From Escherichia coli (GTDB lineage: Bacteria > Pseudomonadota > Gammaproteobacteria > Enterobacterales > Enterobacteriaceae), in the NCBI RefSeq assembly GCF_001677475.2, contig NZ_CP015229.1: a DNA stretch of 64,000 bases, one strand, 5' to 3'. Shown here in pieces: positions 39,449 through 39,739 of this stretch. A program made the translations under genes and the position numbers. The notes beneath the pieces are model-generated. The model had not been told where the DNA came from and made no database searches. It saw only the letters and a program-made list of their open reading frames with translations. The stretch's first letter is position 1; every line of letters begins with the position of its first letter.

Positions 39449-39739
39449 TTCCCGTGATGGATAAATAAGGGTAAGATTCCGCGTAAGTATCGCGGGGGCG
39501 TAAGTCTGGTTATAAGGCGTTATTGTTGCAGGCAGTTTGGTCACGGCCAGCGCGCAGCAACCGGAGCGTACAAAAGTACGTGAGGATGGCGAGCACTGCC
39601 CGGGGCCAAAATGGCAAATAAAATAGCCTAATAATCCAGACGATTACCCGTAATATGTTTAATCAGGGCTATACTTAGCACACTTCCACTGTGTGTGACT
39701 GTCTGGTCTGACTGAGACAAGTTTTCAAGGATTCGTAAC

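Follow-up and report, generated by a model that had tools for sequence, protein, structure and literature searches.

The pyrH-frr spacer

This analysis concerns the spacer between pyrH (UMP kinase) and frr (ribosome recycling factor) on an Escherichia coli chromosome, and a dispersed repeat of 145 bp that stands within it. The stretch of DNA analysed, 64,000 nucleotides in all, is referred to below as the window. The gene order in this segment is rpsB-tsf-pyrH-frr-dxr. The window is collinear with strain K-12 MG1655 here, a window coordinate being the NC_000913.3 coordinate minus 153132, and 21 mismatches to MG1655 were counted across the 4001 bp surrounding the spacer. The spacer occupies 39449-39739 (NC_000913.3 192581-192871). 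Very probably it is an ancestral spacer of about 149 bp, comprising a hairpin, two frr promoters and a conserved frr 5' untranslated region (UTR), which has received an insertion of a 145-bp repeat related to ERIC (enterobacterial repetitive intergenic consensus), and probably near neutral in its effect. The features to which the text refers are as follows.

38723-39448, + strand: coding sequence of pyrH (b0171 in MG1655), with the stop codon TAA at 39446-39448; from the open reading frame list.
39449-39477, + strand: putative promoter P1, with -35 TTCCCG (39449-39454), a 17-bp spacer and -10 TAAGAT (39472-39477).
39469-39498, + strand: a conserved hairpin, of which the 5' arm, the loop and the inner part of the 3' arm lie here (GGGTAAGATTCC.GCG / CGC.GGG...); from folds and ortholog alignments.
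39484, + strand: major mapped frr start (NC_000913.3 192616), giving a 256-nt 5' UTR that holds the entire repeat.
39499-39643, + strand (NC_000913.3 192631-192775): dispersed imperfect-palindrome repeat of 145 bp, similar to the miniature transposable elements with inverted repeats (MITEs) and related to ERIC, replacing ATC of the empty allele.
39559-39587, + strand: apex of the repeat, AACCGGAGCGTAC-AAAA-GTACGTGAGGAT, 29 nt; from the fold, exact matches in distant phyla and covariance-model matches.
39644-39649, + strand: TTACCC, which in the ancestral hairpin formed the outer part of the 3' arm and has been moved 145 bp by the insertion; from the filled/empty alignment and the fold of the empty allele.
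39670-39681, + strand: promoter P2, with -10 TATACT (39670-39675) and a start at 39681.
39682-39739, + strand: conserved frr 5' UTR, with the Shine-Dalgarno sequence AAGGA at 39727-39731; from alignments.
39740-40297, + strand: frr (b0172), with a GTG start; from the open reading frame list.

An earlier note on this DNA, made from the letters alone, had described a spacer of 291 bp, abnormally long for its surroundings, with a small hairpin CCGCG-TAAGTAT-CGCGG at 39479-39495, a GC-rich block at about 39530-39610, no U-tract terminator after pyrH, no annotated element, and an frr that begins at GTG. That description is sound. The length follows from the open reading frame coordinates 39448 and 39740, and its excess is that of a 145-bp insertion in an ancestral spacer of about 149 bp. 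The small hairpin is present, at -9.2 kcal/mol with two flanking G.U pairs. The G+C content of the block is 63%, compared to 44% for the spacer outside the repeat and 52% for the whole window, and the block is a discrete structured element. Neither the sequence nor a consensus scan reveals a U-tract terminator after pyrH; the scan, for promoters and terminators on the + strand of the spacer, returned no terminator-like and no promoter-like site. The RefSeq annotation of MG1655 has nothing between pyrH and frr. A scan of the spacer with Rfam 15 gave no family at its gathering score, the sole match being sX9 at 22 bits against 44. The GTG is kept in nine orthologs and, together with the AAGGA Shine-Dalgarno sequence and the last 45 nt or so of the spacer, is invariant or nearly invariant in 9 of 9 aligned orthologous spacers. 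The further supposition, that the element is specific to this locus, does not survive: it is a copy of a dispersed repeat, missing here from 35% of E. coli and from other genera.

An insertion polymorphism

The spacer was searched against 5426 complete E. coli genomes and detected in 5425. The full 291-bp form is present in 3512 of the 5426 (about 65%), and the remainder (about 1913) match in two pieces spanning 149 bp, as in the empty allele of locus L002. ST131 and O157:H7 are examples of natural strains with the empty allele. With the repeat alone as the query, a match of at least 95% was obtained in 3512 genomes, and in 1924 records the best match was just 80-90% and lay at other loci. Each E. 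coli genome has the repeat at 1 to 8 places (median 5); six places each were found in the K-12 derivatives BW25113, DH1 and a derivative of MG1655. Other E. coli copies are located between the pheM leader and pheS, at rlmL-ycbX and at qseG-qseE/glrK. The E. coli copies are about 85% identical across a core of approximately 120 bp, and copies stand in both orientations relative to genes. No second copy was found within the 64-kb window.

The repeat resembles a MITE in being small (145 bp) and non-coding, with terminal inverted repeats, GTCTGGTTATAAGGC and GCCTAATAATCCAGAC, that pair, and in being both dispersed and polymorphic for insertion. No reading frame is kept between the copies. Copies are also found in prophage contigs, and those in viral contigs are of the enterobacterial type only and lie in prophages. 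One E. coli copy is carried by a 243-kb record labelled as a plasmid, pEC16-AU-EG1 (L003, NZ_CP194962.1 30628-35745), together with the chromosomal uup-rlmKL-ycbX-zapC-pyrD block; the explanation is the capture of a large piece of chromosome or else an error of assembly or labelling.

When the filled and empty alleles are aligned, the 145 bp stand in place of the trinucleotide ATC, which puts the landing site inside the 3' arm of a hairpin that follows pyrH. In the empty allele that hairpin is GGGUAAGAUUCC.GCG[loop]CGC.GGGGAUCUUACCC, with a predicted energy of -25.8 kcal/mol and a z of -5.05 for the 80-nt fold. The same hairpin occurs in Klebsiella pneumoniae (-23.9 kcal/mol, followed by UGAUUUUC) and in a further relative, L132 (-23.1 kcal/mol), and it is weaker in Enterobacter hormaechei and Salmonella. 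Between E. coli and Klebsiella there is one compensatory change in the stem, G-C to U-A. In the window, only the inner 5-7 bp (-9.2 kcal/mol) survive from a stem of about 15 bp (-26 kcal/mol). CCGCG (39479-39483) and CGCGG (39491-39495), with the 7-nt loop TAAGTAT, are this inner part of the ancestral hairpin; when the spacer outside the repeat is shuffled, a comparable GC-rich 5-bp hairpin arises in 4% of cases.

Repeat-free spacers of 146-170 bp are found in Salmonella, Klebsiella, Enterobacter and two further relatives; for the three named genera and the short E. coli form the range is 146-167 bp. Because these outgroups and the short E. coli allele share both the repeat-free spacer and the intact hairpin, the short allele is taken to be ancestral. 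The opposite polarity, in which E. coli started from the long allele and the 149-bp allele arose from it by secondary deletion or excision, would account for a junction that is not a simple insertion with target duplication. It could also draw on the distribution among strains: according to the hit-table labels, an O145:H28 strain has the repeat and O157:H7 strains do not, and therefore a history with a single event needs later loss or recombination. However, all the outgroups are without the repeat, the hairpin is intact in them and likewise, even to GGGGATCTTACCC-like sequence, in the short allele of E. coli, and a deletion would need to have restored that hairpin exactly. We consider a long ancestral allele unlikely.

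A 251-bp pyrH-frr spacer was observed in GCA_022846635.1, labelled Salmonella Choleraesuis (L130 1250-1500; Frr 89% identical). Downstream of its TATACT box it has about 100 bp of other GC-rich sequence, an extra segment unrelated to the E. coli repeat. From these comparisons the pyrH-frr spacer seems to be a recurrent landing site.

Transcription across the spacer

In K-12, SMRT-Cappable-seq placed an frr start at 192616 (window 39484) with 475 reads and a transcription unit of 192616-193491, and the accompanying operon tables list a second frr start at 192813 (window 39681). The same data contain pyrH-frr and pyrH-frr-dxr transcription units and define no site of termination between the two genes pyrH and frr (Yan et al. 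2018, PMC6131387). Term-seq found + strand 3' ends in this region at 190800, 192871, 192996 and 194843, none of which is inside the repeat (Adams et al. 2021, PMC7815308). The start at 39484, the read-through from pyrH into frr and the lack of a 3' end within the repeat together establish that the repeat is transcribed in K-12, both in the 256-nt leader of the P1 transcript and in the pyrH-frr read-through RNAs. The repeat itself neither starts nor ends transcription.

The start at 39484 is attributed to P1, which sits within the 5' arm of the hairpin that follows pyrH. Its discriminator, TCCGCG, is GC-rich, and GGGTAAKATTCCGC is conserved in orthologs. At P2, CTATACTTA is invariant in all the orthologous spacers. 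The earlier note had put the GC-rich block ahead of the frr promoter, which is correct for the start at 39681 and incorrect for the stronger mapped start at 39484, upstream of the block. It had also reasoned that uniform read-through with no discrete ends, together with poor conservation, would count against an element in the spacer. Transcription does run from pyrH into frr, no 3' end falls in the block and the block is poorly conserved here, all of which do count against it; there are two discrete 5' ends, at 39484 and 39681, but both come from the promoters of frr, which lie in ancestral sequence outside the insertion.

A hairpin of such stability, placed shortly after pyrH, might be expected to act as the pyrH terminator or as an insulator between pyrH and frr, stopping or stabilising the pyrH mRNA, and the REP (repetitive extragenic palindromic) and ERIC elements are reported in reviews to stabilise or destabilise upstream mRNA. 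The transcript maps give this explanation little room: SMRT-Cappable-seq has no termination site between the two genes and does have the pyrH-frr and pyrH-frr-dxr transcripts, and Term-seq has no 3' end between 190800 and 192871. Moreover, the block is without a U-tract, and the ancestral hairpin, broken by the insertion, is the better candidate for a terminator. We regard a terminating or insulating role for the block as quite improbable. The set of features that marks an intrinsic terminator is not seen at either hairpin, neither of which is followed by a U-tract, and the spacer has no 3' end or termination site before 39739.

The 3' end at 39739 (192871) is listed as an 'orphan' in the Term-seq data; it is one base before the frr GTG, with no hairpin or U-tract nearby. 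Further upstream in the window, Rfam matches were obtained to CssrA (136 bits) at 37553-37662, in the rpsB-tsf spacer, and to t44 (83.5 bits) at 36628-36714, upstream of rpsB. The CssrA match is followed by the published 3' end at 190800 (window 37668), which fits the known attenuator-like terminator there.

It was also considered whether the spacer encodes an independent small RNA (sRNA) or a small protein. The minus strand of the apex weakly resembles the Rfam family sX9 (22 bits, E about 1), and open reading frames of 32-36 codons overlap the repeat. However, no start site or 3' end is mapped inside the repeat, the sX9 score is far under the gathering score of 44, and the loops of different copies differ in length by 4-6 nt, which would shift any frame. 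A gene of its own in this spacer is hardly credible.

Fold of the repeat and covariation

The repeat is predicted to fold as a single long imperfect hairpin, 39504-39641, at -54.2 kcal/mol, compared to a mean of -38.7 kcal/mol for shuffled sequences (z -4.6). Its apex is built from a 5-bp stem, then a G.U pair, then tandem A.G/G.A, and includes two GTAC (RsaI) sites, at 39568 and 39576. Covariation was analysed with RNAalifold on 26 diverged copies taken from E. coli, other Enterobacterales, Aeromonas and prophage contigs. The consensus contained 35 predicted pairs, and 96.9% of cells were able to pair. Compensatory changes were present in 13 of the 35 pairs, against 5.8 +/- 1.4 in column shuffles, and the observed value was reached in 0 of 500 shuffles. 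When the partner columns were slid as a control, pairing fell to 22-36%. The covariation indicates that the pairing of the hairpin is actively maintained.

Some copies have an extra structured module of about 70 nt (gactcgcttcgctcgccctaaagggccgc...gttcaaaatgcc...) directly 3' of the apex GAGGAT. They were seen in Yersinia, Photorhabdus, Citrobacter, Edwardsiella and a soil metagenome-assembled genome (MAG) (L009, L033, L034, L038, L041-L053, L066), and the family is therefore modular.

A fold far better than that of shuffled sequence, pairs that covary and a position within the 5' UTR of the main frr transcript are what a locus-specific cis-regulatory RNA (a leader, an attenuator or something riboswitch-like) controlling frr would display. 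Such a regulator is difficult to reconcile with the absence of the block at this position from 35% of E. coli and from all the other genera examined, though frr is essential, or with the presence of the same sequence at unrelated loci in both orientations relative to genes. There is no match to an Rfam family, no premature 3' end is mapped in or after the block, and the apex is mutated in some strains, for example from CCGGAG to CCGGTG. The evidence largely refutes a dedicated regulator of frr, to which we attach very little probability. Apex mutations of this kind speak against a strong constraint on the pyrH-frr copy. In strains 357900 and TW10590 (L136, L137) there are substitutions equivalent to 39482, 39565, 39573 and 39598, which include an A to T change in the conserved apex GAG and a G to A change in the small hairpin. 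Substitutions of this kind in the pyrH-frr copy suggest relaxed constraint here.

The apex in distant bacteria

One genome per species was scanned with the apex pattern AACCGGASCGTA-N4-6-GTACGTGARRAT, which has 26 specified bases, and at least 120 stretches were returned. Among the matches listed for the exact pattern were many Enterobacterales and, more distantly, two Candidatus Scalindua MAGs (Planctomycetota) and a Syntrophus MAG (Thermodesulfobacteriota). Also among the exact matches listed were MAGs of Desulfobacterales (Thermodesulfobacteriota), Bacteroidales (Bacteroidota), Chlorobiales (Chlorobiota) and Rickettsiaceae, as well as Rhodoferax, Paucibacter, Microbulbifer and Aeromonas. 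In all these distant groups there were usually many matches per genome. The distant copies studied are those at L014-L016, L020-L031, L057-L060, L065, L067, L073-L077 and L083-L128. Within each lineage the apex caps a hairpin of 120-170 nt, the sequence of the arms differs from lineage to lineage, and the consensus has inverted-repeat ends flanked by TA or TTA.

The covariance model built on enterobacterial copies gave full-length matches in Microbulbifer (74 bits), Chlorobiales (55-64), Syntrophus (32-35), Rickettsiaceae (33.5) and Bacteroidales (31.8), and apex-only matches in Scalindua (27-33 bits). On these scores, some distant copies are closer to the pyrH-frr element than are the ERICs of E. 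coli. The Rfam result for the distant copies was again sX9, below threshold and on the minus strand of the apex. Where flanking open reading frames are co-directional, the apex strand given in the scan pattern is antisense about twice as often as sense (approximately 31 against 14, by crude calling of open reading frames). The Scalindua version (L083-L128) has two tandem 19-nt motifs resembling the terminal repeat at its left end and one at its right. Further copies with a slightly mutated apex occur every few kb in Scalindua, a very high density.

The repeat may belong to a superfamily of TA-flanked hairpins that reaches far beyond the enterobacteria, in which the conserved part is not the termini but a strand-asymmetric apical module, AACCGGAGCGUAC-N4-6-GUACGUGAGGAU. 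We put this forward tentatively, as possible and somewhat short of probable. The module has a 5-bp stem, a G.U pair, tandem sheared G.A and a CCG/GGA internal loop, and the arms beneath it differ between lineages yet remain complementary. Among the matches listed, the taxa with the module include Betaproteobacteria of the Burkholderiales type and several gammaproteobacterial orders. A literal search for the apex sequence in papers found unrelated primers only, and the reviews consulted place ERIC only in Enterobacteriaceae, Vibrionaceae and Gammaproteobacteria. If the superfamily is real and undescribed, repeats of the ERIC/RSA type (RSA being a repeat of older E. coli catalogues, considered below) would represent the branch, in enterobacteria, of an element that is either ancient or spreading horizontally. 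The apex would then be a functional nucleic-acid motif for a conserved factor to recognise, be it a host protein or the machinery of mobilisation, and a core conserved across phyla would provide a concrete handle for finding the recognition factor of ERIC-type elements.

Several known motifs were compared with the apex and set aside by inspection. Mimicry of the 23S sarcin-ricin loop was considered as GUACGUGAGGAU and ACCGGAG resemble AGUACGAGAGGACCGGAG; the G-C to U-A covariation with ERIC supports a plain stem, and the ERIC apex cannot form that fold. The apex halves GUACGUGAGGAU and ACCGGAGCG also resemble, in circularly permuted order, the sarcin-ricin region AGUACGAGAGGACCGGAGUG (L165, 23S rRNA, NC_000913.3 228340-228480). 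The likeness between the apex and the sarcin-ricin sequence is probably coincidence. Domain 5 of group II introns was discounted, as the lower helix is not complementary, and so was a kink-turn, the bulge being just 1 nt. A CsrA site was likewise considered and dropped.

Interpretation at the locus

The insertion of an ERIC-related repeat into an ancestral spacer accounts for the length of the spacer, the GC-rich block and the truncated hairpin. A number of points weigh against this reading. The junction has no clean target-site duplication, the left flank being GGGGG-CG instead of GGGGG-ATCT. A search through 1.4 Mb of locus sequence yielded neither a transposase partner nor an autonomous parent, and no split apex halves or kilobase-spaced pairs of terminal repeats; we know of no cognate transposase for the repeat. 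The case for mobility consists of the polymorphism and the copy number. The hexamers of P1 are weak and were missed by the consensus scan, so that this promoter is deduced from the published start at 192616. The compensatory changes could reflect homogenisation from arm to arm of a DNA palindrome, and not selection on RNA structure. Finally, the effect on read-through proposed below is a prediction, the transcript data being those of K-12, which has the filled allele.

With regard to the junction, only on the right is the sequence as expected if the TA of CTTACCC was the insertion point. Eight nucleotides, GCGTAAGT, are directly repeated, at 39481-39488, in the loop region of the small hairpin, and at 39498-39505, at the left junction of the insertion. 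This direct repeat suggests the trace of a secondary rearrangement, which may have erased a clean target duplication. Elsewhere, the lineage consensus has TA or TTA on both sides.

In RNA the repeat would form a hairpin of 136 nt. Since the insertion breaks a terminator-like hairpin, more transcription would be expected to pass from pyrH to frr in the strains that carry it, and such an increase is consistent with the K-12 data. The added hairpin is about 100 nt upstream of the ribosome-binding site, and the region from the Shine-Dalgarno sequence to the start codon has a predicted unpaired probability of 0.64 with the repeat in place and 0.57 without it. Because the predicted accessibility of the ribosome-binding site barely changes, the effect on frr translation should be small. 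By analogy with the ERIC elements of Yersinia, a modest change in mRNA processing or stability is possible. The repeat is probably near neutral at pyrH-frr and not a dedicated regulator, because apex substitutions occur in some strains, the repeat is absent here from a third of the species and the accessibility of the Shine-Dalgarno sequence is approximately unchanged.

Taken by itself the locus is unremarkable. Dispersed repeats of this type are familiar, the promoters of frr had been described before, and so had its GTG start and the read-through from pyrH. The result is useful in removing a false lead, as what stands in GC-rich form ahead of an essential translation gene is an inserted repeat and no hidden regulator. 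In addition, because the insertion split a conserved terminator-like hairpin, the natural E. coli alleles provide an isogenic-like test of how an insertion rewires the coupling of pyrH and frr.

Comparison with known repeats

The nearest described relative is ERIC, also known as IRU, for which the published 127-nt E. coli consensus was used as the reference (Delihas 2007, Table 1a). It is identical to the repeat-family consensus at 81 of 115 aligned positions, with several gaps. The two share TAATT..GTTGCAG near the ends and GGAGC-TAC...GTA-GTGA at the centre, and both are transcribed intergenic imperfect palindromes that are variably present between strains. The architecture of the apex is also common to both, with the stem CGUAC/GUACG in the repeat and CUUAC/GUAAG in ERIC, a difference that is itself a G-C to U-A covariation. 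However, the repeat is about 145-150 bp long, compared to 127 bp for ERIC; its apex is flanked by AACCGG/GGAU and not CCCCAG/CUGGGG; most copies have an extra outer inverted repeat, TAAGAGCCTATCCCAGT, which is not in ERIC; and an E. coli genome has 2-8 copies of it, whereas the ERIC core has a median of 10 matches. Classical ERIC was rejected for the pyrH-frr element on two counts. The central 44-mer, the target of the ERIC1R/ERIC2 primers, finds other loci and not pyrH-frr, and the family covariance model R1 gives a genuine ERIC copy 11 bits (E 0.06), a match that sits at the ERIC centre in the same orientation. By sequence, then, the repeat family is related to ERIC but separate.

The RU-2/YPAL and RU-3 repeats of Delihas were rejected as unrelated in sequence. 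The repeat is similar to REP/BIME in that both are GC-rich extragenic palindromes found in E. coli 3' UTRs, but REP units are 35-40 bp long with another consensus, and REP/BIME was rejected by sequence, none being present in the spacer.

The repeat is probably the RSA of the E. coli catalogues of the 1990s, a repeat about 152 bp long with 6 copies in K-12. The size and the K-12 copy number found here fit those figures, with a consensus of about 150 bp, 6 places and two RsaI sites at the apex. RSA was reportedly also published as 'BEE95', by Bachellier and Hofnung in 1996.

In the 22-26 bit alignments to Rfam RF02228, the Xanthomonas sRNA sX9, the start of the model, AUGUAC-CACUC-GUACA-CUCCGGUU, is matched to the minus strand of the apex. 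They were obtained for the window, Chlorobiales and soil-MAG copies, all below the gathering score of 44, and the apex alone aligns.

According to reviews, the ERIC elements of Yersinia modulate mRNA stability (De Gregorio et al. 2005). Like them, the pyrH-frr copy is co-transcribed with its flanking genes and is predicted to fold as a long hairpin, and they offer a plausible model of how it might act in RNA. In Yersinia the effect is governed by orientation and by a site within the terminal repeat. The repeat also has much in common with the TA-flanked MITEs, such as the Correia elements and those of the ERIC type in Photorhabdus and Xenorhabdus, which are likewise small and non-coding with terminal inverted repeats, and it shares with them the TA or TTA flanks of the lineage consensus and a copy number that varies between strains. 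It differs from a typical MITE in that the centre is far more conserved across lineages than the termini, which is the reverse of the usual pattern.

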